From an uncultured Gammaproteobacteria bacterium (GTDB taxonomy: Bacteria; Cyanobacteriota; Vampirovibrionia; LMEP-6097), in NCBI GenBank assembly GCA_964512985.1, contig CAZELI010000002.1, positions 11,252 through 75,251 of the forward strand: a DNA stretch of 64,000 bases, read 5' to 3'. Position 1 is the stretch's first letter; each line of letters starts with the position of its first letter. Position numbers and translations under genes: made by a program. The notes beneath the pieces are model-generated. The model was not told where the DNA came from and searched no databases. It saw only the letters and a program-made list of their open reading frames with translations. Positions 6,218 through 61,906 of this stretch are shown here, piece after piece.

Positions 6218-9004
6218 GTGTACAAGAAACTAAAATTACTAATAATAATTTGGAGCATTATGATGATGAATACAGCGGTTTTAAGCGCTAAAGAAAGCAA
6301 TAATATAAATATTAAAGGGGTAAAATTTATTAAGTCTTTTGCCGGAATTAGTGAATATCAATTAGATAATGGTCTGAAGATTTTACTTAAACCTAATACT
6401 GATGTTCCTTTATTATCCTGGCAGGTTTGGTATAAGGTTGGTAGCCGTAATGAACCTTTGAATTTAACGGGAATTGCTCACTATTTAGAGCATATAATGT
6501 TTAAAGGTACACAAACTTTCGCGAAAGGTGAGATTGCTCAGGTTATACAGCTTAAAGGTGGAGTATTTAATGCTTTCACTAGTGATGACTATACTGCTTA
6601 TTTCGAAAACTTTGCTCCTGATCAATTAGAGCTGGCTATTAAGATTGAATCTGATCGTATGCAGAATTCTAGGCTCAACGCTGAAGAAATTAATTTAGAA
6701 CGTAGCGTGATTGTCTCTGAGCTTGAAGGTAATAGAAATGATCCGAATAATATTCTATATGAAACGCTGAGAGCGACTGCTTATCAAGTGCATACTTATC
6801 GTAATCCAGTTATTGGTTGGCGTGATGATCTTGAGAATATTAATGCCGAGAACATGCGTGAGTTTTATGAGAATTATTACTATCCTGATAATGCAACTGC
6901 AATTCTTGTAGGTAATTTTGATTCGAGTGTTGCATTAAATCTAATCCAAAAATACTTTGGTAAATATAAACCTAAGAAAAATATCAGAGCGCATGCCCCT
7001 AAAGAACCTGAACAGATAGGTACTAAGAAAGTTGTAATTAAGAATGGTGGCGCTGTAAAGCTCTTGGGGATTGCCTTCCATATTCCTGAGTTCGCTCATG
7101 CAGATATACCTGCTTTAAGTATTATTGGAGATGTGGTGTTTAGTGGAATGACTAGTCATCTGTATCCTAAGTTAGTAGATACTGGATTGGTTTCTGGAAT
7201 ATCTGGTCTCGCTGAGCCTAGTCGTGATCCTGGATTGTTTAGAATCATTGCAAATATCAATGATGAAGCTGATATAGAAAAAGTTGAGCAGATAATTTAT
7301 CAAGAAATAGAAGCAGTGAAGAAGGGTATTACTGAGGAAGACTTGAAACTTGCCAAAGCTAGAGAGGAAGCGTCGTTTATCTATCAACAGGATGGTGTTT
7401 ATGATGAAGGTCTGCAGATAGGATACTTTGAATCGATTTGTAATGATTGGACTAAATATGCAACTTGGGTGAATGAGATTAATGCTGTAACTAATGAAGA
7501 TGTGATGAGAGTCGCTAAGAAATATTTCACTGAGACTAATAAAACTGTGGTGTATTTATTACCAGAAGAAGCTAATAATAGTTTACTAAAACCTGAAAAA
7601 CTCTTGGATATTGAGTTAACTAATACTACTCCAGATACAGAAGCTCATTATGGCTCAGCAACAGTGGATCCTATTAACCCAGATAAGTTGAAACAGCTTA
7701 TGAAGATTAGTCAACCTAAGTATTCTAAGGGAATTAAATATTCTAAGCTTGATCTTAATTTTAAGGAATTGGATTCTGCTATGCCTGGTGTGAAAATCTT
7801 ACATCGTCAAGATCATAGTATTCCTATAATTTATATGAATGCCTATGTTTATGGGGGTTCTGTCAATAATGGAGATGATCTTGGTCTAGCTTATTTCACT
7901 AGTAAAATGTTGTCTCGTGGTACCAAAGCTAAGGATAAATATGAGATAGCAAGGTTATTAGATCTCTATGGTGCTGATATTAGCTTTGAATCAGGGGTGG
8001 AGACTGGTAGAATCCACGTTTCTACTCTTACTAAATATGTACCTGAAGTATTTGGGATTCTTAAAGAGATGATTAGCGAGCCTCGCTTTGATACTACTGA
8101 GTTAGATAGGCTCAAAGTACAGACCATAGCGCAAATCAAACAGGAAGATGATTTCCCGCGTAAGATAGCTAAGCGTGAAATGAAACGTGCTGTATACCCT
8201 AAAAGACATCCATATTATTCATATAGTATTAGTGAAAGAGTTTCTGCTATCCAAAAAATTACTATTGATGATCTAAAGCAATTCTATAAGGCTAACTATA
8301 ATACTAATAATATTCTTGTGTCTGTAGTTGGGGACATCGATACAGCTAAAACACAAGAACTAACTCTAAGTACCTTTAAGGATTGGAATGCTGGTGGTCA
8401 GGGTAACCAGCCGCCAGTAATCCCTAATGTTGAGCTTAAAGGACCTATCGAAGAGATTATTGCTAAAGCCGATAAAACACAGACAGAGATTGTGATGGGG
8501 CATGCTTGCCATATAGATAGAATGAATCCAGATTTCTTCCCTCTCTTGATTGCTAATCAAGCCTTAGGTGGCAGTTCTTTATCTTCTAGGTTGGGAACTG
8601 TGGTTAGAGATGAGAACGGTCTTGTTTATAACGTAAGAACTTCTTTCTCTGCAACGCTTGGTGCTGGTGAGTTTGAAGTAGTTCTAGGTTGTAATCCTAA
8701 GAACACTACCAAAGCTATAGAGTTAACGAAGAAAGTTATTGGAGACTTCTTGAAAGCGGGTATCAATGCTACTGAGCTTGAAATAACGAAGTCCTATTTA
8801 ATTGGTTCTTTTGGTCCAAGAACACTTGCTAGTAATGAAGCTATTGTTGACACTTTATCTCAATTACAACTTTATAAGCTTGGCAATGATTATATTAAAA
8901 CTTATGAAGATAGGATTAACGCGATCACTTTAGAAGATGTGAATCGTGTTGCAAGAAAGTATATTCATCCTGATAAGCTTAATGTGGTGATTGTTGGGCC
9001 GTAA
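6218..9004 (+). CDS. tandem M16-family zinc peptidase (two pitrilysin-like units, PqqL-like)
   Basis: 928 aa with a signal peptide, the HxxEH zinc motif (HYLEHIMFKG) in the first unit and a second inactive-type M16 unit. GTG start. Confidence 0.85.
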   Translation: MYKKLKLLIIIWSIMMMNTAVLSAKESNNINIKGVKFIKSFAGISEYQLDNGLKILLKPNTDVPLLSWQVWYKVGSRNEPLNLTGIAHYLEHIMFKGTQTFAKGEIAQVIQLKGGVFNAFTSDDYTAYFENFAPDQLELAIKIESDRMQNSRLNAEEINLERSVIVSELEGNRNDPNNILYETLRATAYQVHTYRNPVIGWRDDLENINAENMREFYENYYYPDNATAILVGNFDSSVALNLIQKYFGKYKPKKNIRAHAPKEPEQIGTKKVVIKNGGAVKLLGIAFHIPEFAHADIPALSIIGDVVFSGMTSHLYPKLVDTGLVSGISGLAEPSRDPGLFRIIANINDEADIEKVEQIIYQEIEAVKKGITEEDLKLAKAREEASFIYQQDGVYDEGLQIGYFESICNDWTKYATWVNEINAVTNEDVMRVAKKYFTETNKTVVYLLPEEANNSLLKPEKLLDIELTNTTPDTEAHYGSATVDPINPDKLKQLMKISQPKYSKGIKYSKLDLNFKELDSAMPGVKILHRQDHSIPIIYMNAYVYGGSVNNGDDLGLAYFTSKMLSRGTKAKDKYEIARLLDLYGADISFESGVETGRIHVSTLTKYVPEVFGILKEMISEPRFDTTELDRLKVQTIAQIKQEDDFPRKIAKREMKRAVYPKRHPYYSYSISERVSAIQKITIDDLKQFYKANYNTNNILVSVVGDIDTAKTQELTLSTFKDWNAGGQGNQPPVIPNVELKGPIEEIIAKADKTQTEIVMGHACHIDRMNPDFFPLLIANQALGGSSLSSRLGTVVRDENGLVYNVRTSFSATLGAGEFEVVLGCNPKNTTKAIELTKKVIGDFLKAGINATELEITKSYLIGSFGPRTLASNEAIVDTLSQLQLYKLGNDYIKTYEDRINAITLEDVNRVARKYIHPDKLNVVIVGP
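8956..9004 (+). repeat. left copy of a 49 bp perfect direct repeat (the 3' end of the M16 peptidase gene including its stop)
   Basis: aaagtatattcatcctgataagcttaatgtggtgattgttgggccgtaa recurs exactly at 9959-10007. Confidence 0.9.
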
Positions 9005-10007: not shown

Positions 10008-11762
10008 TTAAGGTGCTAAGTGGCTACCTTTACTAAGTACTATCAGGCTTTTGTCGTCATTAAACTCTCGAGAGTATTGTAAATATGCTTGAATAATTTT
10101 TTGAGGATTAGTACCAGCGCTTAATACTGGTGTGATAACTGAATTTAGTTGATCAAATCGAGGGGGTATAACTTCTTCACGTTTTAGCTTATCGCCTGAT
10201 TTACTTTTTAATATACCATCTGAAGCAAGAACCAAACCTTCAATATTCTTTTTATCAATAAAACAAACAGTAAATTTTGCGGGATTTTGTTTATGCCAAC
10301 CTTGACCTCGATTCACTACCCCTAAATATGATTTTACTGTACCTTCTCCTGGTATACGATCTGCCGAATTCAAAGAATTTTCAATAATCCCATTAGCATT
10401 AAAAGCAGAAGCAATAGTATCTCCAGCTGAAATTAACATCAATCTTTCACCAAGATCAATAGCCAGGGAAACTGTAGTATTTGCTTCTATAAATTCTTCT
10501 TCTTTATTTTGTGATTTTGTTTGAGTTATTCCAACTGTTTCAATTCTAGTGTTTCTTTCAAGTGGCTCAGCTTTAATCGTTGTAGGTGATTTAATAACTG
10601 TCTCTGGGATTATTTCTTCGCATCTAGATTTAATTTGATCAACTGAATCATTTAAAACTTTCATCGCATTTAGAATCGGCTTATAATCATCAATCAAAAA
10701 CGTTTTCGCAAGCTCATCTAAACTCTTATTCTGATAGAATTTCAAAGATTCATTCTCTAGTTTTTTCAAATCAATAGGTGTATAACCAGCTCTTGTTAAT
10801 GTAGTTCCTTCACCCAATTGACTATAGTCAAACTCATTCCTTCTCTGATTATGAATGTCCCTATTTTTAATAACTAATTTCATCGAACAATCACTGAATT
10901 CATCTTTTGCTAAGTTCAACCCAAGATGCTCTAAATATAAATCCTGTAATTTTTTCTTAGCGTCAATACCTGGTTTTAAGAACTGTCGTAAATTACTAGC
11001 TAATAATGTTTGATAACTATTAGCATCAAATAAATTAGAAAATAATTCTTCAACAGTGGAAATATTCAAGCCTGGTTTAGTTTTTTTTACAAATTTAGAA
11101 CCAAGCTTTTCAAAATCAGCAAACTCTAATTCATGATTTTTAACATGATCAATTACCGCATCTGCTGCGATTTTGCCAGTAGATAATTCTCTATCTAAGC
11201 CAGCTCCACTAATGCCATCTGCAACAGCTGCTAATAATACTGGAGCTTTATTAACATTAGCAGGATTTCTCTGATCTAAACCTACACAATAAGTCGCATC
11301 AGAATTATCACTAAACATTCTACGCTTACCAGCTAAACTTTCTCTCCCCACTGTGAAAGGCTGGTCTTCATTAGCTCCTAAATTGATATTTTTTGCGTTA
11401 ATTAAAATTGGATCAGCAATAGTCCTTAGTAAACGATTTGTATCTCTCAAGGCAGTGACAAAATTAATTTTAAATTTGTCATAAATACTTTTAACTCGTT
11501 CATTTTCATTTTGAACAGAATCGGTAGCTAAATTAAAAATTCCAGCTAAGCTCTCTATAAAGTTAGCAACAGATTGATTAATAATTTTGCTAATTTCAGA
11601 AAAGAACCAGGATGCATAGTCATAACTTAATCCAGAACTAGGAATATCTTTTATTTGAATTTCCTGAACAGCAGCTTTTAATTCAGGCTCAGAAAAATTT
11701 GCATTAATTAAAACCTCTTGCCATCTCGGTATTTGATTGCCAGGAATAGTAGACATGGGCAA
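10008..11762 (-). CDS. PP2C-family phosphatase-like protein with an N-terminal extension and a large internal insert
   Basis: PP2C-like motif series: AAVADGISGAG, ISAGDTIASAF, LVLASDGILKS and a C-terminal DDKSLIVLS. About 230 aa lie between the first two motifs. Confidence 0.55.
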   Translation of the reverse strand: MPMSTIPGNQIPRWQEVLINANFSEPELKAAVQEIQIKDIPSSGLSYDYASWFFSEISKIINQSVANFIESLAGIFNLATDSVQNENERVKSIYDKFKINFVTALRDTNRLLRTIADPILINAKNINLGANEDQPFTVGRESLAGKRRMFSDNSDATYCVGLDQRNPANVNKAPVLLAAVADGISGAGLDRELSTGKIAADAVIDHVKNHELEFADFEKLGSKFVKKTKPGLNISTVEELFSNLFDANSYQTLLASNLRQFLKPGIDAKKKLQDLYLEHLGLNLAKDEFSDCSMKLVIKNRDIHNQRRNEFDYSQLGEGTTLTRAGYTPIDLKKLENESLKFYQNKSLDELAKTFLIDDYKPILNAMKVLNDSVDQIKSRCEEIIPETVIKSPTTIKAEPLERNTRIETVGITQTKSQNKEEEFIEANTTVSLAIDLGERLMLISAGDTIASAFNANGIIENSLNSADRIPGEGTVKSYLGVVNRGQGWHKQNPAKFTVCFIDKKNIEGLVLASDGILKSKSGDKLKREEVIPPRFDQLNSVITPVLSAGTNPQKIIQAYLQYSREFNDDKSLIVLSKGSHLAP

Positions 11763-24863: not shown

Positions 24864-25986
24864 ATGTCCGATCTTTCTGAACAAACCTATGATTTAAATG
24901 AACTTAAGCTTCGTTACTCTTCACTAAAGGAGTATCTTTGACCAAGAAGAGGTCAAAAAAGAGATAGCAGATTTAGAAGCTGAGATGTCTGCGCCGGGGT
25001 TTTGGGATGATACCAATGCTGCACAAGCCAAATCACAAACTCTTGCACAAAAGAAAAATCAATTAGGACAATTTCAAAGTTGGAACAAGCGTCTACAAGA
25101 TATCTTGGATATGGAAGAGTTTCAATCCTCTTCTTCTGATAATGAAGAGAAGCTGCAATATCAAGCAATGATTTTAGATGAGTATTTGTCTTTAAGTAAA
25201 GAATTTAAGGTTTTTGAATTTCAAAAAATGATGTCAGGTGACTATGATAAGTCTGATGCCATAGTTTCTATTAACGCAGGTGCCGGTGGTACGGACGCGC
25301 AGGACTGGGCGGAAATGCTGCTTCGGATGTATACTCGTTGGGCAGAGAATTACCGAAGTTATACTGTTGAATTGTTAGAACGTTCTGATGGAGAGGAAGC
25401 TGGGATTAAATCAGCTACTATAAAGGTGACTGGTCCTTATGCTTATGGATATTTAAGTGCAGAGAAAGGTGTGCATCGTTTAGTACGTAAATCTCCGTTT
25501 AAATCTTCTGCTGACTCTAGGCAAACGAGCTTTGCTGGTTTAGAAGTTACGCCAGTAGTAGCTGATATGTCTAAGATCATTGAGCTTGAGGAAAAAGATC
25601 TTGAGATAGATACAATGCGTTCTGGTGGTGCTGGTGGACAAAACGTTAATAAAGTAGAAACGGCAGTGCGTGTTAAACATATACCAAGCGGCATAGTGGT
25701 GAAATGTACTCAGCAGCGTAGTCAGATGCAGAATAAAGCTAGTGCTTTAGACCTTATTCGTTCCAAGCTACTTGCAATTAAAGAAGCTGAGCAAAAAGCC
25801 AAAATTATTGAGCTTAAAGGGGAATCGGTATCTGCTTCTTGGGGAAACGCTATAAGATCCTATGTTCTAGATGAAGGTAGGGTGAAAGATGTTCGTACTA
25901 AATATGAGACTCGTGATGTGGAATCTGTTCTAAATGGCGATATTGATGCTTTTATAGAGGCATATTTAAGACAAGAAGCGAAGTAA
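24864..25986 (+). CDS. prfB: peptide chain release factor 2, requires programmed +1 frameshift at 24936-24942
   Basis: ATG at 24864 opens a 25-codon frame ending ...AAG GAG TAT CTT TGA C. The +1 frame continues [24 protein letters not shown] into the long ORF, which carries [17 protein letters not shown] (GGQ). An SD-like AGGAG lies upstream of CTT TGA C. Confidence 0.9.
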
Positions 25987-26021
25987 AGTGTCCAAGTGGC
26001 TTAGTGACAGGGTGGCTGAGT
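25987..26021. repeat. single arm of the octamer-repeat element, just after the prfB stop
   Basis: agtgtccaagtggcttagtgacagggtggctgagt shows an 8 nt periodic AGTGnCnn pattern like the arms at 39299, 45732 and 53079. Confidence 0.45.
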
Positions 26022-28060: not shown

Positions 28061-28160
28061 GTGGGTTCCGCCGCTTCGCGGCGTTTGCGCTGCGCGCGGC
28101 TGAATGAAAGAAATTATTTAGTAGTCCGCAGGGCGAACCGCGCCGAAGGCGCGGAACCAC
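28061..28160. repeat. 100 bp GC-rich palindromic MITE-like element, copy 1
   Basis: gtgggttccgccgcttcgcggcgtttgcgctgcgcgcggc...AT-rich centre...agtccgcagggcgaaccgcgccgaaggcgcggaaccac. The termini are inverted (GGTTCCGC / GCGGAACC). Internal hairpins are gccgc-ttcg-gcggc and cgcgcc-gaa-ggcgcg. Confidence 0.85.
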
Positions 28161-38671: not shown

Positions 38672-39921
38672 TATTTCAAAATCTCTTCCGCTACTAATCT
38701 TGCAGTATTGTATCCGCTAAGCTTACTCTTTAATTCAGACAAATCAGTTTTAATTTTCTGGTAATAAGCACTATAAGCTCCGTTCTTTTCAAACCAAGAC
38801 TCTGTTTCTGTTACAAAGTTTTTAACGTTAGCCTCATACTGTAAAAATTCTTTAATTATATACTTACCTGCAATAATATTAGCTAAGCCAGCCATAGTGA
38901 TAGTTCTGAAACATAGATAGAGAAGGTAATTGAATAAATTAGACCTGTAACTAAGGAAGTAAGGAGTAGTATAAAGTGCGGCTTCTAGTGTTACTGTTCC
39001 TGAGCAAAGCCAGAGTGCATCAGCGGCTGAGAGTAATTTATGATTAGAACTGAGCATATCTTGTGATTCTAATATTTCGATATGATGACTTTGTTTTCCT
39101 TCAAGTGCCATATTTAAAGGTGTTTTAAGCCCACATTGCTCTAGAAGTGATTTACTTATCGTTGGAGCTTTAGCTAGGATAAATCTAAAATTAATTTCTG
39201 GGTTTCTTTTAATTAACTGCTCTGATGCTTGAATCATTAGTGGAAGCATTTCTTTGATTTCCGCTTTGCGACTGCCAGGAAATAATCCTATTAATGTTTG
39301 AGTGGCTGAGTGGCTGGGTGCTTGGGTGACTGTATTGATTGATAGCCCTCTTCTATATTGGATTTCACCAAATTGCCTCAGAAATTCTTCTTTATTGATT
39401 GGTTTAGCAAGCGAGTCTAAGACTGGGTTTCCTACGTATTTGTATGGAATGCCAGATTTCTGATAGAGCTTTTCTTCTAAGGGTAAAGTACAAAGAACTT
39501 TATCTATATATTTCTTGATGTTATTGATACGCCAAGGTCTAGATGCCCAGATTTGGGGTGCGATAAATTCTATGATTTTAATTTCAGAAGATTGTTTTTT
39601 AATTGCTTGAGCGAGTTGTAAATTAAATCCACCATAATCTACAAGTAAGACTATATCTGGCTTCCAGTTTATAATTTCTGTCGCTATTTCTTGTTTCAGT
39701 GAAAGTATGGTAGAGATATTGGCGATAACTTCACTGATACCAGAGAAACCATAATCTCGGTAATCTTTAATTACTTTCACTCCTAGTTCTTCTAGTATCT
39801 CTGAGCCAAAGGCTCTAATCTCTGCTTCTGGACAGAGTTTGAAGATTTCTATTACAACTCTAGAAGCATGACTCTCGCCGCTTAACTCCCCGCATGAAAT
39901 AAATACTTTTGGTTTAGTCAT
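38671..39921 (-). CDS. lpxB: lipid-A-disaccharide synthase
   Basis: 416 aa with an N-terminal ISCGELSGESHASRVV motif and GT19 family architecture. It contains an octamer-repeat insertion (VTQAPSHSATQT). Confidence 0.85.
   Translation of the reverse strand: MTKPKVFISCGELSGESHASRVVIEIFKLCPEAEIRAFGSEILEELGVKVIKDYRDYGFSGISEVIANISTILSLKQEIATEIINWKPDIVLLVDYGGFNLQLAQAIKKQSSEIKIIEFIAPQIWASRPWRINNIKKYIDKVLCTLPLEEKLYQKSGIPYKYVGNPVLDSLAKPINKEEFLRQFGEIQYRRGLSINTVTQAPSHSATQTLIGLFPGSRKAEIKEMLPLMIQASEQLIKRNPEINFRFILAKAPTISKSLLEQCGLKTPLNMALEGKQSHHIEILESQDMLSSNHKLLSAADALWLCSGTVTLEAALYTTPYFLSYRSNLFNYLLYLCFRTITMAGLANIIAGKYIIKEFLQYEANVKNFVTETESWFEKNGAYSAYYQKIKTDLSELKSKLSGYNTARLVAEEILK
39299..39331. repeat. single-arm octamer-repeat element inside lpxB
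   Basis: tgagtggc tgagtggc tgggtgct tgggtgac t. Read on the gene strand it encodes VTQAPSHSATQT. Confidence 0.6.
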
Positions 39922-41224: not shown

Positions 41225-42595
41225 ATGCAAGAACTAGAAGCCATAAGTCCAATAGACGGTAGATATAGAAAGAAAGTTGAATCACTTAAAACCTATTTTA
41301 GCGAAGCTGCTTTAATTCAATATAGAACTAGAGTTGAAATCGAATATTTAATCGCTTTATCAGAAACTAAGGGTTTAAACCTTAGGGCTCTTACTCAAGC
41401 TGAAAAAACTCAATTAATTAATATCTATAAGAACTTTACCCTTGCTGATGCCGAGATGGTAAAAGACAAGGAAGCTATCACTAATCATGATGTTAAGTCT
41501 GTAGAGTATTTTCTCAAGGAAAAGCTCACGGGTACTTCACTTGAAGATATCGTGGAGTGGATACACTTTGCACTTACTTCAGAAGATATCAATAATCTTG
41601 CTTACGCTTTAATGCTTAGTGAGGCTATTCATAATGAAATAATTCCAGCAATGCAAAATCTCGTATCTATAATTGATGGATTTGCTGATGCTAATAAATC
41701 TGTGTCTATGCTAGCTAGAACACATGGTCAATCTGCTTCTCCGACTACATTTGGTAAAGAGATGAAGGTCTTCAGCGCAAGATTAACAAGACAATTAGAG
41801 CAGCTTCAATCTTATAAAATTCTTGCTAAATTAAATGGTGCAACTGGTAACTATAACGCTCATATGATTGCATTCCCTAAGATTAATTGGACAAAATTCA
41901 CTTGTAAGTTTATTGATAAGTTAAACCAGGATTTAACAATTAAACTTGAAACTAATTTATTAACGACACAGATTGAGTCTCATGATACTTATGCTGAATT
42001 ATTTGATATAATTTCTCGTTTTAATACTATTCTTATTAGTTTTAATCAAGACATTTGGCGTTATATTAGTGATAACTGGGTATCCCAGAAACCTAAAGCC
42101 GGAGAAGTTGGTTCTTCAACTATGCCGCATAAGGTCAATCCTATTGACTTTGAGAATAGCGAGGGTAATCTTGGACTGGCTAATGCCTTATTCGGTTTCT
42201 TTAAATCTAAATTACCTATTTCTAGACTGCAACGTGATCTAACAGACTCGACTGTCGTTCGCAATATGGGAGTTGCATTAGCTTATTCTTTAATTGCATA
42301 TCAATCTGCTATTAAGGGACTAAGTAAAGTTTCTGTGAATGAAACTAAGATTAAAGAAGCTCTATATGATCATCCAGAAGTTATAGCTGAAGCTATCCAA
42401 ACTGTAATGCGTAGAGAAGGGAAAGCGGTTCCCTATGAGCAACTTAAAGAGCTTACTCGTGGTAAAAAAATTACTCTAGATGATTTTCAGAAGTTTATAA
42501 ACGAACTTGATGTAAATAAAGAAGTAAAAGCTGAGTTACATGCAATTAGTCCTGAGAATTACATAGGAATTGCTGTGCAATTAGTGTCTGAGTGA
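41225..42595 (+). CDS. purB: adenylosuccinate lyase
   Basis: It starts MQELEAISPIDGRY (typical PurB N-terminus) and carries the fumarate-lyase signature GSSTMPHKVNP. The track start at 41204 is a GTG only 10 nt after the tRNA, so I prefer the ATG at 41225. Confidence 0.9.
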   Translation: MQELEAISPIDGRYRKKVESLKTYFSEAALIQYRTRVEIEYLIALSETKGLNLRALTQAEKTQLINIYKNFTLADAEMVKDKEAITNHDVKSVEYFLKEKLTGTSLEDIVEWIHFALTSEDINNLAYALMLSEAIHNEIIPAMQNLVSIIDGFADANKSVSMLARTHGQSASPTTFGKEMKVFSARLTRQLEQLQSYKILAKLNGATGNYNAHMIAFPKINWTKFTCKFIDKLNQDLTIKLETNLLTTQIESHDTYAELFDIISRFNTILISFNQDIWRYISDNWVSQKPKAGEVGSSTMPHKVNPIDFENSEGNLGLANALFGFFKSKLPISRLQRDLTDSTVVRNMGVALAYSLIAYQSAIKGLSKVSVNETKIKEALYDHPEVIAEAIQTVMRREGKAVPYEQLKELTRGKKITLDDFQKFINELDVNKEVKAELHAISPENYIGIAVQLVSE

Positions 42596-42598
42596 TTG

Positions 42599-44093: not shown

Positions 44094-44193
44094 ATGGGTT
44101 CCGCCGCTGCGCGGCGGTTGCGCTGCGCGCGGCTTGAGATATATTTTATTTCAGCAGTCCGCAGGACGAACCGCGCCGCAGGCGCGGAACCAC
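44094..44193. repeat. 100 bp GC-rich palindromic element, copy 3
   Basis: gggttccgccgctgcgcggcggttgcgctgcgcgcggc...agtccgcaggacgaaccgcgccgcaggcgcggaaccac lies between atpH and rpiB. Confidence 0.85.
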
Positions 44194-45726: not shown

Positions 45727-45731
45727 AATAA

Positions 45732-45799
45732 AGTGTCTAAGTGTCTGAGTGTCTGGGTGGATATGTAGCAGGCACTCACAACCCAGTCACTCAGACACT
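45732..45799. repeat. complete octamer-repeat palindromic element between atpE and the b-prime gene
   Basis: agtgtcta agtgtctg agtgtctg ggtgg - loop - cactcaca acccagtc actcagac act. The arms are largely complementary (about 17 of 19 in the best register, by eye). Confidence 0.8.
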
Positions 45800-45806
45800 G
45801 CTTAAT

Positions 45807-50704: not shown

Positions 50705-50763
50705 AATTAGTATTGTAGCATTTTATTGACTTTCTTAGGTATTTTATAGTTCTTTACATTTAT

Positions 50764-50846
50764 AACTACTATAGAATATATAGCCTAACTACTATAAATT
50801 ATATAGTGCAACTACTATAAAAAATATGGTATAACTACTATATATA
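50764..50846 (+). repeat. four phased 23 bp direct repeats directly upstream of the fic start codon
   Basis: aactactata starts at 50764, 50787, 50810 and 50833, an exact 23 bp spacing. The units also share downstream A/T-rich similarity (aactactata-r-aa-w-atata). Confidence 0.75.
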
Positions 50847-52322
50847 ATGGTTAACCTTAAGGAACTAGAACGAGATGCTAAAGTTTGGCTCAATAAGGAG
50901 CTCAAGAAATCTAGAATTGTATTTGAGAAGCAAACAATACCAAGTGAAATATATAACTATCTTAAAACTAAATCTTTAATTGCTGATCTTACAAAACAAT
51001 ATGTTTTTATTAAATCAGAATATGATAATGAAATAAATGCTTTTCGTAATAATTTCTGGTTGATAATTTTTCAATATCTAAATTTAGCCTTTGATAATAA
51101 TTGGTATTTAACTGGTCATTATGCTTATAAATTTATGGTGGAAGATTTTAGTCTAGCAAGTAAACAGTTAACAATATCTACGCAAGCTAAATCCAATCGT
51201 ATGCTTAGTTTACTTGATGGTGTTCAGATACTTGCTAGCTATGATAAAGATTTTGAAAGTAAGCCTTTAATTAGTAAAAGTTTCTTTGATGAAAAGATTG
51301 AATTATTAAAACCAGAATATTTATTAATCAATTCTAGTAAAAATGATTACCATAATTATAAATCTGAATTAATATCTATTATTAAAAGTTCTGAACGTGA
51401 TGAAGCTTATATAGTGAATTACTTTACAGAAAACAGTTCACCAGTTTTACTTACAAGATTAATAGGAGCACTTAGAGATTTAGAAGACTTTACTCTTAGG
51501 ATTGAGCTTGAAGAGTTGCTTAAGCTCTCTGGCACACAGATTAAGATAGAGAGTCCTTTTGATAGTTTTATTCTACTAGAATCAAGTGAAAGACCTGCCT
51601 ATCTTGCTAGGTTTGAGATATCGATGACTAAAGCGATAGAAACCCTATCTAAGCTGAAAAAACCAAAGCGTTTAAGTAAGAGATTTACTGTTGAAGATCT
51701 CGATGCGATAGTTATCGATGAAACCTACCATAGTTTAACCATAGAGGGTTATACCGTAACTCGTGCTTTAATTGAATTTTTACAAAACGAAGAATCCTTA
51801 AATAATGCTAGTGAACTACGAGATCAACTGGCTGCTAAGGGTTTTATGAATGCTCTTGCTTATATTCGTAAATTGATTACGGCTAAATTTGTTATTCATG
51901 AAAATCTAGCAAAAAAACTCTTCGAAGAACTCTGGAAACCTAGTATTAATGCTGGTTCTATTAATACTAAGTTTGATATTTATCGTAAACATATGGTGGC
52001 TATTAAAGGCGCGCAGTATGTGCCACCTAGTCATGAGAAAGTACCTTATATGATAGATGAGGTTTTTGATTATGCTCGTAAGATTACTAATGGATTTGAG
52101 CTGGCAATATTCTTGCATTATTTTTATGTGGGAGTACATCCTCACGCTGACGGTAATGGACGTATTTCTCGTTTCTTGATGAACCTTGCTTTGATCCAGG
52201 ATAAATATCATTGGCTTACTATTCCGTCTGAAGATCGTAAGAATTATTTTGGTGCTTTAGAACGCTCTCAGTTAGAGGATGATATTAGTTATTTTGCGGA
52301 GTATATTGTTAGTCAATATTAA
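50847..52322 (+). CDS. fic: Fic-domain protein with an internal inhibitory-helix motif
   Basis: The active-site motif HPHADGNGRISRF follows the HxFx(D/E)GNGRxxR pattern. An upstream SLTIEG matches the (S/T)xxxE(G/N) auto-inhibition motif. A large N-terminal region of about 290 aa is unassigned. Confidence 0.8.
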   Translation: MVNLKELERDAKVWLNKELKKSRIVFEKQTIPSEIYNYLKTKSLIADLTKQYVFIKSEYDNEINAFRNNFWLIIFQYLNLAFDNNWYLTGHYAYKFMVEDFSLASKQLTISTQAKSNRMLSLLDGVQILASYDKDFESKPLISKSFFDEKIELLKPEYLLINSSKNDYHNYKSELISIIKSSERDEAYIVNYFTENSSPVLLTRLIGALRDLEDFTLRIELEELLKLSGTQIKIESPFDSFILLESSERPAYLARFEISMTKAIETLSKLKKPKRLSKRFTVEDLDAIVIDETYHSLTIEGYTVTRALIEFLQNEESLNNASELRDQLAAKGFMNALAYIRKLITAKFVIHENLAKKLFEELWKPSINAGSINTKFDIYRKHMVAIKGAQYVPPSHEKVPYMIDEVFDYARKITNGFELAIFLHYFYVGVHPHADGNGRISRFLMNLALIQDKYHWLTIPSEDRKNYFGALERSQLEDDISYFAEYIVSQY

Positions 52323-52352: not shown

Positions 52353-55040
52353 ATGAACGAATATAACCCTAAATTAATTGAAGCTAAATGGCAAAAACTC
52401 TGGGAAGAGTCTGGTATCTATAAGTTTGACGATAAACCTGATAATGCTAAGCGTTTTTATTCACTAGTAATGTTTCCTTATCCTTCTGGGAATTTGCATA
52501 TGGGGCATATGCGAGTTTATACAGTTTCGGATTTGATTTCCCGTTATAAAACGATGCAAGGTTATAAGGTACTTAATCCTATGGGCTTTGATGCTTTTGG
52601 TTTGCCAGCAGAGAACGCTGCTATCGAGCGTGGTGTACATCCAGGCAAGTGGACTGACTCAAACATCGCTTATATGCGTGATGAGCAGCTTAAACGCATG
52701 GGTACTAGCTATGACTGGTCGCGTGAGGTGATTTCTTGTCACGAAGATTACTATAAATGGACTCAATATTTATTTCTCAAGTTATACGAGAAGGGATTAG
52801 CCTATCAGAAAGAAGCGCCAGTGAACTGGTGTCCAGAATGTAACACGGTACTTGCTAATGAGCAGGTAGAAGATGGCATGTGCTGGCGCCATACTAATAC
52901 TCCCGTAAATAAACGCATGATGAAGCAATGGTTCTTGCGCATCACTGATTATGCAGAAGAATTACTTAATGACCTAGATAAGTTAGAACACTGGCCTGAA
53001 AGCGTTAAGACTATGCAACGTAATTGGATAGGGCGTAGTGTCGGTGCTGAAATTGATTTTGAAATTTGTCAAAGTGGCGGAGTGTCTGAGTGTCTGAGCG
53101 ACAGAGTAACTGACCCAGCCACCCAGTCACCCAGCCACTCAATTACAGTTTATACTACTAGACCTGATACGGTTTATGGAGTGACTTATATGGTGCTTGC
53201 ACCAGAACATAAATTAGTTAAAGGACTTACTACTAAGGATCGCCTTGCAGAAGTAGAAACATATATTAAAGAGTCTTCTAGTAAGTCTGAGATAGAGCGT
53301 ACTGCTGAAGGTCGCAAGAAGACTGGAGTCTTTACTGGCGCTTATTGTATTAATCCTTATACTGAAGAAAAAATTCCAGTATGGATAGCAGATTATGCTT
53401 TAGTAGATTACGGTACTGGTGCGGTGATGGCAGTGCCTGCACATGATGATAGAGATTGGGAGTTTGCAAAGGAATTTGGATTGCCGGTAAGGGAGGTAAT
53501 TAGAGTGACCGAGTGTCCGAGTGTCCGAGTGTCTGAAAGTTCAGTCACTCAGTCACCCAGCCACTCAGTCACTAAAAATGCTTACACTGGTCCTGGAACA
53601 ATGATCAACAGCCAACAGTTTAATGGTCTGGATAATGAAACTGCTAAGCAGAAGATCGTAAAATATGGCTCAGAGCAAGGCTTTGCGCGAGAGACTGTTA
53701 AATATAGATTACGCGATTGGTTGATTAGTCGTCAGAGATATTGGGGTTGTCCGATTCCATTAGTAGAAGCTGAATCAGGCGAGATAGTAGCTGTCCCTTA
53801 TGAATCGCTTCCAGTGAAGCTTCCATTAGATATAGACTTTAGCCTTGCTAAGTCTGAAGGTGGTTCTATATTGGCTAATAAACCTGATTGGTATAATGTC
53901 ACTCTTCCTGATGGACGTAAGGCTAAGCGCATCACTGATACTATGGATACTTTCATGTGTTCATCATGGTATTTCTTGCGTTATCCTGATGCTCATAATT
54001 TAGAGAAGCCATTTGCTAAAGATCAAGTGTTTCCTGTTGATCAATATGTGGGTGGTATTGAACATGCGATCTTACATCTCTTGTATTCTAGGTTTTTTAC
54101 TAAGGCATTACGTGATTGTGGGATGCTAGATTTCTCGGAACCTTTTACTAGATTGCTTTCTCAAGGGATGGTAGTTAAGTATTCAGAGAAAGAAAACAAG
54201 ATAGTGAAGATGTCTAAATCTCGCGGGAATGTTGTGGGTACTAATGAGTTCTTTGATGAATATGGTGCAGATGCAGCTAGATTGTTTATATTATTCGCTG
54301 CTCCAGTAGAAGCTGAAGTAGAGTGGGTTGATGAAGGAGCCCAAGGGCAATATAGATTTATTAATAGAGTTTGGAGGATGTATGCTGCGTTGAGTTCGGC
54401 ATTTAATACGACCTCATCTAGTGAAGAAATCGACTTTAATGCTCTTTCTCCAGCTAATCAAGAGATTCTCCGTATTTTTCATTTTACGCTTAAGTCTATT
54501 ACTGAGGATCTTAGTCCTGAGCGTAATGGCTTTAATACTGCGATTGCTCGTATGTTTGAGTTTGTGAATGCAATGTACAAGTATATGAACGCAAAGGGCT
54601 TTGATGTAGGTAAAGGTATATTAAATGATGAAGATAGTTTAGTAGTGAAACATGTTCTGGTGAATTTTATTAAAACACTTGCACCGTTCACGCCACACTT
54701 AGCAGAGGAACTATGGCAAATATATAGTGTCCGATTGACTGAGAGTCTGAGTGACCGGAACCCAGTCACCCAGTCACCTAGTCACTTAGTCACTAATTCT
54801 GTACACTTGCAACGTTGGCCTATATATAATCCTAATTATTTAGAATCTAAGACTGTTAATTTAGTATTGCAAATCAAAGGTAAAAAAGTAGATGTTATAG
54901 AAATAGCTAAAGACCTCTCAGAGAAAGACCTTGAGCAATTAGCTATGGATAATGAGAAGATGAAGAAACGTTTAGAAGGATTGGATATTAAGAAGGTTAT
55001 TATAGTACCAAATAAATTAGTTAATGTGGTAGCAGGTTAA
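52353..55040 (+). CDS. leuS: leucyl-tRNA synthetase carrying three in-frame repeat-element insertions
   Basis: 895 aa with HMGH ([11 protein letters not shown]) and KMSKS motifs plus a CP1 editing domain (TTRPDT). Confidence 0.95.
53079..53140. repeat. octamer-repeat palindromic element inside leuS, copy 1
   Basis: ggagtgtc tgagtgtc tgagcgac agagtaac tgacccag ccacccag tcacccag ccactc. It encodes [21 protein letters not shown] just before the conserved TVYTTRPDT. Confidence 0.8.
53503..53573. repeat. octamer-repeat palindromic element inside leuS, copy 2
   Basis: gagtgacc gagtgtcc gagtgtcc gagtgtct gaaagttca gtcactca gtcaccca gccactca gtcact. It encodes [23 protein letters not shown]. Confidence 0.8.
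54726..54794. repeat. octamer-repeat palindromic element inside leuS, copy 3
   Basis: agtgtccgattgactgagagtctgagtgaccggaacccagtcacccagtcacctagtcacttagtcact encodes [23 protein letters not shown]. Confidence 0.8.
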
Positions 55041-60460: not shown

Positions 60461-61906
60461 CTAGATTTTTGCTTTAATATCTAAAATAATACGCTTTAGT
60501 GCGCCTGCGCTTGGTAATTTAGACTGTAGCTGTCCATTTACGGTTTTAATAGAATGAATAATTGAGCTGTGTTTTCTACCACCGAAGTATTCTCCTATTC
60601 TTGAATAACTAATTTCTAGTAACTCATGACTAAGATATATTGCAATATGCCTTGCTCTGGTTATATCTTGTAGTCTTTTCTTGCTTATTAGGTCTTTATT
60701 CTTCAGTGAGAAATAATCTGCGACTGTTGAGCTTATTTTTTCTATGCTTAAACCTTTATTGCGAGGTTCACTTATACCACCAAATAATCTTGCAATAAGC
60801 TCGTCATCTACGTTCTCACCTGCAAAGTTCTTGTATGCAGAGATTTGGTAGAGAGCGGCTTCTAGCTCTCTAATGCTTTCTGGGTATTTTCTAGCGATAG
60901 TTTCAGCATAGATTTCATTGATTTCTATCTTAGAAGCTTGTGACTTGTTTTGCAAGATGGAGATTCTGTCAGTGAAGCTTGGCGAACTGATTTGACTTAA
61001 TAATGATGACTTGATTTTATTGTTTAAATTATTGCTGAGTTTGATTTCATCAATGTTTCTTTGTGCAGCGATGATAACCTTAGCGCCAGAACTAATTAAG
61101 GCATCAAAGGTATATAAGAACTCTTCTTGGCAAGTTTTCTTCCCTTCAAGAAACTGAAAATCATCAAACAATAATAAATCTAGATTGCGATATTGGTTTC
61201 TGAATTCTTGAGTTTGATTTCTTTGGATAGAAATTATAAGTTCATTAGTGAACTCTTCTGCTTTCACATATCTCACTCTCATTCCCGAATCGATTTCAGT
61301 GACTGAATTACCAAGTGCATGTAGTAAGTGTGTTTTGCCTAAGCCTGGTGCTGAATATATAAATAATGAATTGTAAAACCCTGAACCATTCTCTACGATT
61401 GCTTTTGAGAAGTTGATTGCAGATTGATTGAATTCTGCTTGATAAAGATTATTAAAGTTATATTTAGGCTCGAGTTTTGTTTTAGCTTTGCGAAATTGTG
61501 TGTTAACGGGATTAATTTTATCTAATGATGTATTGATAGTAGCTAAGCTTACTTGCACTTGATCTGAGCTTCTTAGTTCGTTTATTGAATAATCTAGATT
61601 CGGTTCAATCACTATGCGCAAAGCAAGAGCCTGAGCCATAACTTCGGTGATAGCTGCTTGTATTTCTTTTTGGTAGCTTTGTATTAAGAAATTACGTGTA
61701 AACTCGTTTCTGACAGCGACTACGGCTTCTGTTTCATTAATAGAACTTAATAAAGTTGGTCTAATCCAAGTCTGGAAGCTCGGTTTACGGATTTTTTTCT
61801 CAAGAACCAAGAGAACCTTAAGCCATATCTCATTTATTCTAGGATCTATGGCAGGGGTTAACCCTAGCATCGGGGATGCTTGGTGTTCAATTTGGTTTTT
61901 AATCAT
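60461..61906 (-). CDS. dnaA: chromosomal replication initiator DnaA
   Basis: 481 aa with AAA+ motifs (APGLGKTHLLHA, LLLFDDFQFL) and a domain IV HTH (RARHIAIYLSHELLEISYSRIGEYFGGRKHSSIIHS). Confidence 0.95.
   Translation of the reverse strand: MIKNQIEHQASPMLGLTPAIDPRINEIWLKVLLVLEKKIRKPSFQTWIRPTLLSSINETEAVVAVRNEFTRNFLIQSYQKEIQAAITEVMAQALALRIVIEPNLDYSINELRSSDQVQVSLATINTSLDKINPVNTQFRKAKTKLEPKYNFNNLYQAEFNQSAINFSKAIVENGSGFYNSLFIYSAPGLGKTHLLHALGNSVTEIDSGMRVRYVKAEEFTNELIISIQRNQTQEFRNQYRNLDLLLFDDFQFLEGKKTCQEEFLYTFDALISSGAKVIIAAQRNIDEIKLSNNLNNKIKSSLLSQISSPSFTDRISILQNKSQASKIEINEIYAETIARKYPESIRELEAALYQISAYKNFAGENVDDELIARLFGGISEPRNKGLSIEKISSTVADYFSLKNKDLISKKRLQDITRARHIAIYLSHELLEISYSRIGEYFGGRKHSSIIHSIKTVNGQLQSKLPSAGALKRIILDIKAKI

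Follow-up and report, generated by a model that had tools for sequence, protein, structure and literature searches.

A tandem-octamer foldback repeat carried in frame by leuS of a Melainabacteria-like genome

Palindromic selfish DNA lying in frame inside essential genes has until now been mainly a Rickettsia curiosity. The Rickettsia palindromic elements (RPEs; Ogata et al. 2000, summarised in PMC10969869 and PMC3184786) are, as these summaries present them, selfish DNA known from Rickettsia and tolerated in essential proteins at positions compatible with the protein fold. They measure about 105–150 bp. Ten families are distinguished, each sharing a conserved full-length consensus and encoded peptide, and in-frame fusions are frequent (PMC10969869, PMC3184786). 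Here we describe a 64-kb stretch of contig CAZELI010000002.1 (assembly GCA_964512985.1, positions 11,252–75,251), a small part of the genome, which we call the window and to which all unprefixed coordinates refer. It shows RPE-like behaviour in a free-standing lineage related to Cyanobacteria, by way of a structurally different repeat built of tandem octamers and their reverse complements, three copies of which lie in leuS, the gene for leucyl-tRNA synthetase (LeuRS). We consider it probable that these copies represent a short foldback repeat that enters genes, and that in-frame, stop-free copies in permissive linkers survive as neutral filler.

Several other classes of short repeat invite comparison. 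Cyanobacterial short tandemly repeated repetitive (STRR) sequences, reportedly described by Mazel and colleagues in 1990, are direct tandem arrays of heptamers, for example CCCCAGT. The TAACTGA heptamer repeats of Beggiatoaceae and cyanobacteria form direct arrays, mostly intergenic and typically just upstream of start codons, with one inverted set reported and with insertions surviving mainly at protein peripheries (PMC4679880). [quoted passage not shown] The in-frame tandem repeats of Borgs are direct, with genic units that are multiples of three nt, and create disordered segments (PMC9879509).

Copies of the octamer element in the window

The host gene leuS (52353–55040, plus strand) is an open, intact open reading frame (ORF) of 895 aa. 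Its homologues are LeuRS proteins, it contains the Pfam domains tRNA-synt_1, tRNA-synt_1_2 and Anticodon_1, and its product matches LeuRS structures in the PDB with an E-value of about 1e-243. A preliminary description of the window, made from the sequence alone, had singled out three segments in this gene (53079–53140, 53503–53573 and 54726–54794) and one in non-coding DNA (45732–45799), which were said to share one octamer architecture and, in leuS, to keep the reading frame open; all four are present, and both statements held up. In each, tandem GAGTG(T/A)C(T/C) octamers are followed by a short spacer that is not conserved and then by reverse-complement octamers. The two-octamer pattern GAGTGWCYGAGTGWC (≤2 mismatches) had 18 matches against 0.25 expected, a number that 0 of 100 shuffles reached, and in-phase octamer chains numbered 17 and 10 on the two strands versus about 0.2 and 0 in shuffles. 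Tandem Repeats Finder reported period-8 arrays at 53080–53098, 53113–53138, 53503–53533, 53541–53573, 54760–54793 and 45732–45759. Full copies are 62–71 nt long and have only the 8-nt unit in common, with spacers differing from copy to copy.

Copy 1 (53072–53140, plus strand) encodes about residues 241–263, at the entry to the editing domain. Its left arm reads AAGTGGCG GAGTGTCT GAGTGTCT GAGCGACA GAGTAACT and is followed by a short spacer and the right arm CCCAGCCA CCCAGTCA CCCAGCCA CTC; the positions of the copies were confirmed, apart from the start of this one, which probably lies one unit earlier than first described, at 53072 (AAGTGGCG). Copy 2 (53503–53573, plus strand), inside the editing-domain region, encodes residues about 384–407 and is composed of GAGTGACC, (GAGTGTCC)x2 and GAGTGTCT, the spacer GAAAGT, and TCAGTCAC TCAGTCAC CCAGCCAC TCAGTCACT. 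Copy 3 (54725–54795, plus strand) encodes residues about 792–814, between the anticodon-binding and C-terminal domains; its left arm is degraded (TAGTGTCC GATTGACT GAGAGTCT GAGTGACC), its spacer is GGAA and its right arm is (CCCAGTCA)x2 CCTAGTCA CTTAGTCACT. The inserted peptides had been described as ending in TQSPSHS(I/V/L)T; the third in fact ends in TQSPSHLVT.

As had been proposed, the element is not specific to leuS, and further coding and non-coding copies were found in the window. Copy 4 (45731–45800) is non-coding and fills most of the 80-nt spacer between the minus-strand genes atpE (c subunit) and atpF (b'), so that it is transcribed inside the atp operon. It is the best-preserved palindrome, with 19-nt arms that are 95% complementary. 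A copy consisting of a right arm alone lies in lpxB (39299–39337, minus strand), where, read in frame, it gives NTVTQAPSHSATQT, in a hypervariable loop that directly precedes the conserved LFPGSR motif; without a partner arm it forms no hairpin, and with a net gain of about 4 residues we counted it as partial. A partly decayed non-coding copy (25987–26016) begins one base past the stop codon of the release-factor gene (24985–25986) with four forward units, AGTGTCCA AGTGGCTT AGTGACAG GGTGGCTG, its right arm having drifted towards A+T. In addition, a two-unit fragment TAGTGTCTGAGTGAT (42582–42596), which overlaps the purB stop codon, is, with low confidence, a possible remnant of the element. 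The family is thus dispersed in this genome, over three LeuRS loops, an lpxB loop, the atpE–atpF spacer and the 3' flank of the release-factor gene.

All four full copies fold into hairpins, with energies of −29.3 kcal/mol for copy 1 (z = −4.0, 25 pairs), −33.9 kcal/mol for copy 2 (z = −6.6), −25.3 kcal/mol for copy 3 (z = −3.1) and −34.6 kcal/mol for copy 4 (z = −4.7). In an Rfam scan of the window the element had no match, and the gathering score was reached by a tRNA and the signal recognition particle RNA alone.

Assemblers can create hairpin-like repeats, and the unit CCAGTCAC is presumably also present in an Illumina adapter, so we considered whether the copies might be chimeric hairpins or adapter-derived sequence. 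The chance of such an assembly or sequencing artefact is negligible. The leuS copies sit in mid-contig, keep the frame of an intact essential gene and recur in a second assembly, made from another sample, that matches the window without a difference across 10,832 nt covering all three of them. In a third assembly the atp and lpxB copies are reproduced to the base, and the 80-nt atp spacer is confirmed in locus L247. Copies that are identical in independent assemblies are no artefacts. In line with this, diverged orthologous copies occur in a sister genome, in both ENA and Logan assemblies, and an octamer hairpin was also found in the genome of an isolate, Hymenobacter cavernae (L075).

Insertion sites in LeuRS and its relatives

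In a protein search, the proteins nearest to the window LeuRS and LpxB carried source names of Melainabacteria or Cyanobacteria metagenome-assembled genomes (MAGs). A low-GC MAG labelled Gammaproteobacteria, CAZKAT01, gave a single match of 113 nt and is therefore neither the source genome nor closely related to it. We aligned 26 LeuRS sequences and, by codon, window leuS with the DNA of L001 (the syntenic sister genome, whose LeuRS is P0001) and L003 (whose LeuRS is P0004). P0001, with 82% LeuRS identity, was the sole relative in the alignment with related segments at all three sites, in diverged form. At 75–78% identity, P0002–P0004 had clean gaps at sites 1 and 2, as did the L003 DNA, in which the gap at site 2 spans 15 codons. 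The site 3 loop varied in length in all relatives, and the element replaces sequence there rather than simply adding to it. The clean insertions foreseen in the preliminary description were therefore seen at sites 1 and 2, with a replaced loop at site 3, where L003 may keep a decayed right-arm remnant. Read from the alignment, the leuS copies predate the split between the window genome and its sister, and the next relatives lack them. As for the atp copy, the atpE–atpF spacer measures 80 nt in the window versus 29 nt in L001, where it appears to hold only a short degenerate remnant of the element.

Against Thermus thermophilus LeuRS the alignment opened gaps of 17, 10 and 18 residues at sites 1, 2 and 3, where the Thermus structure would have, in this order, the strand that leads into the editing domain, a stretch on the surface of that domain, and the junction of the anticodon-binding and C-terminal domains. 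In the AlphaFold model of the window LeuRS (mean predicted local distance difference test, pLDDT, 73), values fell below 50, with no secondary structure, at residues 241–261, 388–407 and 796–808. These stretches coincide exactly with the three inserts and are bordered on both sides by confident strands and helices, in favour of the reading given in the preliminary description; the inserts are therefore predicted to be disordered loops.

At the level of coding sequence, the insert peptides of the window and L001 were 55% identical, compared with 86% for the rest of LeuRS, and non-synonymous and synonymous codon differences stood at 30:9 in the inserts and at 111:258 in the rest of leuS. These ratios indicate that the insert peptide is close to free of constraint, other than the need to remain open. 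In a perfect (GAGTGACT)n hairpin each frame of the left arm would contain TGA, but the left-arm unit observed, GAGTGTCC, has no stop in any frame, and all 13 stop triplets left inside coding copies (13/13) are out of frame. Coding copies have GTGTC and CCGAG variants in the left arm and keep GTCAC in the right arm; the left-arm variants, which can be traced to the stops in the ideal arm, produce regular T-T and C-T mismatches in the stem, and arm pairing stays at 76–89%. Given the intact essential ORF, the insert peptides are presumably translated, and they would persist as translated filler rich in Ser, Val, Thr and Pro.

Homologous peptides were not found at these positions in unrelated lineages; what other lineages carry are different repeat-derived inserts. 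The LeuRS of other Melainabacteria had inserts at sites 1 and 2 that differed from those of the window, with the two inserts of one protein alike. In L122, heptamer hairpins of the form (GCTCAAG)4-spacer-(CCTAGAG)n (−53.5 kcal/mol) occupy the LeuRS loops, with a third copy intergenic (positions 10703–10801, 11156–11233 and 2241–2298). An AAGGCTC-type foldback lies in the loops of sites 1 and 2 in L124 (4308–4406) and L126, the heptamer units across these Melainabacteria being GCTCAAG, GATCTAG and AAGGCTC. L123 carries a non-tandem palindrome, CATTGCGAGG...GCTCGCGATGAC, twice in one LeuRS (763–888 and 1240–1335), in the same two loops, encoding ...SRRDARDD and ...SRRFARDD. L125, which is 91% identical to L124 in leuS DNA, is without inserts, and its surrounding loop is replaced rather than cleanly interrupted. 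These cases suggest a wider phenomenon, in which different Melainabacteria filled the same LeuRS loops with different repeat families.

The length variation of these loops, which are hypervariable in all relatives, could also mean that nothing was inserted: old low-complexity LeuRS linkers may have grown hairpins in situ by replication slippage, with gene conversion homogenising them. The short degenerate versions that L003 site 3 and the L001 atp spacer resemble would suit such growth, as would arms that differ in unit number and register, non-conserved spacers and the failure to find a target duplication. It is harder to reconcile with one unit recurring in functionally unrelated coding and non-coding places of one genome, with octamer hairpins in unrelated genes of other phyla (see below) and with sites 1 and 2 being fully empty in relatives at 75–78% identity; independent convergence on one octamer at each site would be unlikely without transfer of sequence between sites. 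We therefore regard an origin in situ as unlikely.

Regarding the wider context, the window has a G+C content of 35.9%, is 91% coding and contains 59 ORFs. The dnaA gene (60461–61906) lies about 6 kb downstream of leuS, a synteny shared by L001, L003, L122, L124 and L125, which places the repeat-rich leuS near the probable replication origin. Between nifU and leuS is a Fic-domain gene (50847–52322) that is not at that position in L001 or L122, and directly upstream of it is a 23-nt tandem repeat, TATAACTACTATAAAATATATAG, of 3.6 copies (50761–50842). The window LeuRS itself, probably through an indexing quirk, was missing from the protein-search matches, although the collection contains the window LpxB and Fic proteins at 100% identity and an identical leuS is called on ENA contig L248. 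Among the LpxB relatives, P0138 contains a peptide, APGSRL...GSQEPGA, that resembles the same kind of insert. The window also holds a second, unrelated palindrome family, G+C-rich and about 98 nt long, at 28063–28160 and 44096–44193. Its ends are conserved (TGGGTTCCGCCGCT.CGCGGCG.TTGCGCTGCGCGCGGCT ... AGTCCGCAGG.CGAACCGCGCCG.AGGCGCGGAACCACAA) around a variable, A+T-rich centre, and the copy at 44096–44193 sits in the rpiB–atpH spacer, which measures 13 nt in the sister L001.

Octamer hairpins in other phyla

We scanned 185,579 species genomes with a hairpin pattern of two units per arm, for which about 4 chance matches were estimated on random sequence, and at least 118 stretches matched. About 60% of the matches listed belonged either to a haloarchaeal family or to a different palindrome of two units, AGTGACCGGGTGACT...AGTCACCCGGTCACT. 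In the other 47 loci were 48 true tandem-octamer hairpins, with a unit spacing of 8 nt in 190/244 steps. The hosts of these hairpins, among the matches listed, were Verrucomicrobiota, Planctomycetota, Bacteroidota (the isolate H. cavernae among them), Omnitrophica, Acidobacteriota, Gamma-, Beta-, Alpha- and 'delta'-proteobacteria, Lentisphaerae and Armatimonadota. This places octamer hairpins of the same core in at least eight other phyla; the pattern itself forces the AGTG.C core, so the scan counts do not mark this unit as special among possible units.

Several of these hairpins lie in frame in conserved proteins. In UvrB, the hairpin adds 39 residues as a clean insertion, between residues 405 and 406 of a solved structure, and LeuRS of the same Verrucomicrobiota MAG has about 30 extra residues in an N-terminal loop. 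In GltB, about 33 extra residues lie between two domains, and further in-frame cases were found in an M16 peptidase, an alpha-2-macroglobulin, a thymidine phosphorylase and a TolC-like protein. At high-GC loci, some of the long open frames appear to be spurious (L017, L053, L068). Other octamer hairpins among the matches listed lie in spacers; one of them (L066:757–818, a Mangrovibacterium MAG) sits in the ATP synthase operon just upstream of atpG, a setting comparable to that of copy 4 in the unrelated window genome.

Strong folds (z of −3 to −6.6) at such places raise the question of whether the hairpins themselves serve a function in mRNA or DNA, by pausing ribosomes at domain boundaries, by making transcripts more stable or attenuating them in the manner of REPs (raising atpE relative to atpF, for example) or as protein-binding arrays, the peptides being a by-product. 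The pairing retained in coding copies after divergence, the position of inserts at domain junctions in LeuRS, UvrB, GltB and the M16 peptidase, the two independent copies in atp-operon spacers (window copy 4 and L066) and the lack of constraint on the peptides themselves would all be in keeping with this. Close relatives, however, do without the copies, the orthologous copies of the window and L001 have gathered indels and arm mismatches that are not compensated, nothing is left of one arm of the lpxB copy, and no Rfam family matches. We give function as the primary explanation only a small chance, and note that it is compatible with a selfish origin followed by occasional co-option.

Other repeat families turned up in the same scan. 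The palindrome AGTGACCGGGTGACT-loop-AGTCACCCGGTCACT, often with an inner TTTTAC...GTAAAA, accounts for about 60 of the loci L004–L121 (e.g. L007, L021, L032, L082) and occurs in several copies per genome, mostly outside long ORFs, in Bacteroidia/Prolixibacteraceae, Saprospiraceae, Acidobacteriota, Fimbriiglobus and an actinobacterial MAG. A Halobacteria MAG, CAZANW01 (L018, L061, L084, L105), contains a repeated family of 62-nt perfect palindromes, AGTGGCCAGGTGACGAGAACCCCCCGGGCT..AGCCCGGGGGGTTCTCGTCACCTGGCCACT. In a Planctomycetota MAG (L017), a forward octamer array of five units (6249–6286) and a reverse array of four (6741–6770) stand 455 nt apart, a layout that resembles a miniature foldback transposon with an internal segment.

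At the same time, 2.9 million viral contigs gave 0 matches to the octamer hairpin pattern, as well as 0 to two control patterns that were not strictly tandem. A word-indexed protein search with a consensus peptide of the element yielded two candidates and no match. An exhaustive HMMER scan, for which a profile was built from the three window peptides, matched long translated tandem arrays alone, single inserts falling below significance. Six of the predicted proteins (P0121, P0122, P0125, P0128, P0131 and P0132) consist of the octamer translated in long arrays, such as (CPSVRVSE)n, (SHSVTQSL)n and (VTEWPSDR)n, showing that long pure arrays of the unit exist in public assemblies.

The order of the arms bears on a further explanation, according to which both 3' ends of a double-strand break were extended by repeated copying of one 8-nt template and then rejoined. 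This predicts (unit)n-junction-(reverse-complement unit)n with variable junctions and unit numbers, no target duplication and an arbitrary outer phase, and among the genome loci all arrays of at least three units with a partner arm (89/89) had the GAGTG arm first, with 0 inverse. Those loci had, however, been chosen with a GAGTG-first pattern, and an unbiased metagenome scan returned at least 120 stretches in inverse order, which is thus common, though in other repeat families. We know of no enzyme that would carry out such repeated 8-nt copying, and none was found here. Since inverse arm order is common in metagenomes, we hold break healing as speculation and very improbable. A rule that the GAGTG arm always comes first, which we had entertained as general evidence, was dropped for the same two reasons, the preselection of the genome loci and the inverse order in metagenomes. 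Among the inverse-order metagenome hairpins (L130–L246; Ga0126342, Ga0066190/91 and others) are a MITE-like element whose long terminal repeats are A+T-rich (ctaacctacatttttaatttctga CACTCGGGCACTCTGGCGCTCAGG...) and the family (CAGCCACT)n(AGTGGCTG)n, which abounds in one sample series.

Origin of the copies and comparison with known elements

If the copies are a short foldback repeat that enters genes, each would comprise two to five tandem 8-nt units (GAGTG[T/A]C[T/C], or more generally RGTGNCNN), a variable spacer and reverse-complement units, and would have arisen as an insertion of selfish or mutational DNA. Where 91% of the DNA is coding, the genic copies to survive would be those that are in frame, free of stops and placed in linkers of large multidomain proteins that tolerate them; copies in spacers may in some cases have been co-opted as RNA hairpins. 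The distribution of the copies suggests that the element is mobile. New copies would most plausibly form during replication or repair, by template switching or hairpin-primed synthesis seeded from existing copies, or alternatively through mobilisation by a putative further enzyme.

A classic non-autonomous transposon, either a MITE or a REP doublet forming a hairpin (REPIN), mobilised by a transposase or RAYT from another part of the genome, would likewise yield dispersed palindromic copies that are present or absent between relatives. The unrelated GC-rich palindrome family of the window shows that such elements are active in this genome, and the paired arrays of L017 are laid out like a foldback transposon. 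The window element nevertheless has no fixed termini: the number of units, and at times the register, differs between its arms, the phase at which its arrays begin is variable and the interior is not conserved. No consistent flanking direct repeat was found in 20 well-preserved copies, nor in filled-versus-empty comparisons, which are blurred by divergence, and the GTAG or CGTC tag of REPs (PMC3733652) was not visible at the ends of the sequences read. No transposase, RAYT, Y1 domain, reverse transcriptase or IS was found among the about 46 of 59 window ORFs scanned, 64 kb being a small part of the genome, and the viral contigs, as stated, gave 0 matches. Variable spacers, unit numbers and phase, together with the missing target-site duplication and the lack of a nearby transposase, argue against a cut-and-paste MITE, which we consider quite unlikely, and favour copying by replication or repair.

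Several observations weigh against a foldback repeat that inserts itself and is then filtered for permissive sites. A recent insertion with a clean empty site was not found, either at the atp spacer of L001 or in the L124/L125 pair, so that growth in situ from small proto-hairpins is possible. Three of about six copies lie in one 2.7-kb gene, and among the window ORFs of about 900 aa or more (M16 peptidase, SecA, PolA and LeuRS) leuS alone has repeats; this clustering exceeds what random insertion and a simple permissiveness filter would give, and there could be a cause specific to leuS. The arm pairing kept in coding copies also makes some selection on nucleic-acid structure possible.

Going further, it is conceivable, if doubtful, that the window element belongs to an undescribed class of miniature foldbacks spread over many phyla, with 7–8-nt units (octamer core RGTGNC) and generated without a transposase, that time and again colonise the same permissive linkers of large housekeeping proteins, LeuRS recurring among their hosts, and thereby generally supply bacterial proteins with new disordered loops. 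The in-frame hairpins in Verrucomicrobiota, Planctomycetota and Bacteroidota proteins, whose shared core is imposed by the search pattern, likewise suggest that the phenomenon is wider than one genome. If true, this would provide a concrete and traceable mechanism for lineage-specific insertions and disordered linkers in conserved bacterial enzymes, natural maps of insertion-tolerant sites in enzymes such as LeuRS, an antibiotic target, and a repeat class whose propagation known transposition signatures do not explain.

Among the known elements, RPEs, to which the preliminary description had likened the element, match it in behaviour, and the checks suggested there on orthologues, further copies and protein fold all favoured that reading. 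The window copies are palindromic and are predicted to form stable hairpins (−25 to −35 kcal/mol), they occupy both unrelated genes, in frame (three in leuS, one in lpxB), and positions between genes (the atp spacer and the 3' flank of the release-factor gene), and their insertion points are fold-compatible by prediction (pLDDT <50) and are gaps in the solved Thermus LeuRS. They are, however, 62–71 nt long, built of octamers and without a conserved consensus, which sets them apart by the descriptions of RPEs; the host is Melainabacteria-like rather than Rickettsia, and look-alikes occur in many phyla. As judged from these descriptions, the resemblance thus holds for behaviour and not for family membership, given the differences in size, consensus and host.

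With STRR and TAACTGA repeats the element shares dispersed arrays of 7–8-nt units in a sister phylum, and the units themselves look alike (CCCAGTCA versus CCCCAGT, (G)TGACTGA versus TAACTGA); stops in each frame are likewise a property of the forward TAACTGA unit, and in sister Melainabacteria the LeuRS loops in question contain 7-nt units, but as foldbacks. The window element differs in its period of 8, its paired inverted arms and the location of its copies mostly inside genes. MITEs and REPs are similar in being small dispersed palindromes with stable predicted hairpins that are sometimes fused to ORFs. The window arrays, in contrast to MITEs, begin at a variable unit phase and vary in length, with no IS in the ORFs scanned, and in contrast to REPs and REPINs they are longer, mostly genic and end in AGTG...CACT. 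Eukaryotic foldback (FB) transposons are kilobase-scale elements with inverted arms of short tandem repeats and sometimes coding loops; the likeness lies in inverted arms that are short tandem arrays of variable length, and no relationship is implied. As with Borg repeats, repeat DNA inside genes yields new intrinsically disordered protein segments, but Borg repeats are not hairpins, and the window unit has 8 nt, so that all three unit frames are read in turn. The preliminary description had recognised no described family in this 8-nt period, and in the full-text literature we likewise found no description of the unit sequence, of octamer repeats or of foldback repeats in genes. Compared with these systems, the behaviour of the element is known, its architecture is undescribed and its distribution appears unexpectedly wide.

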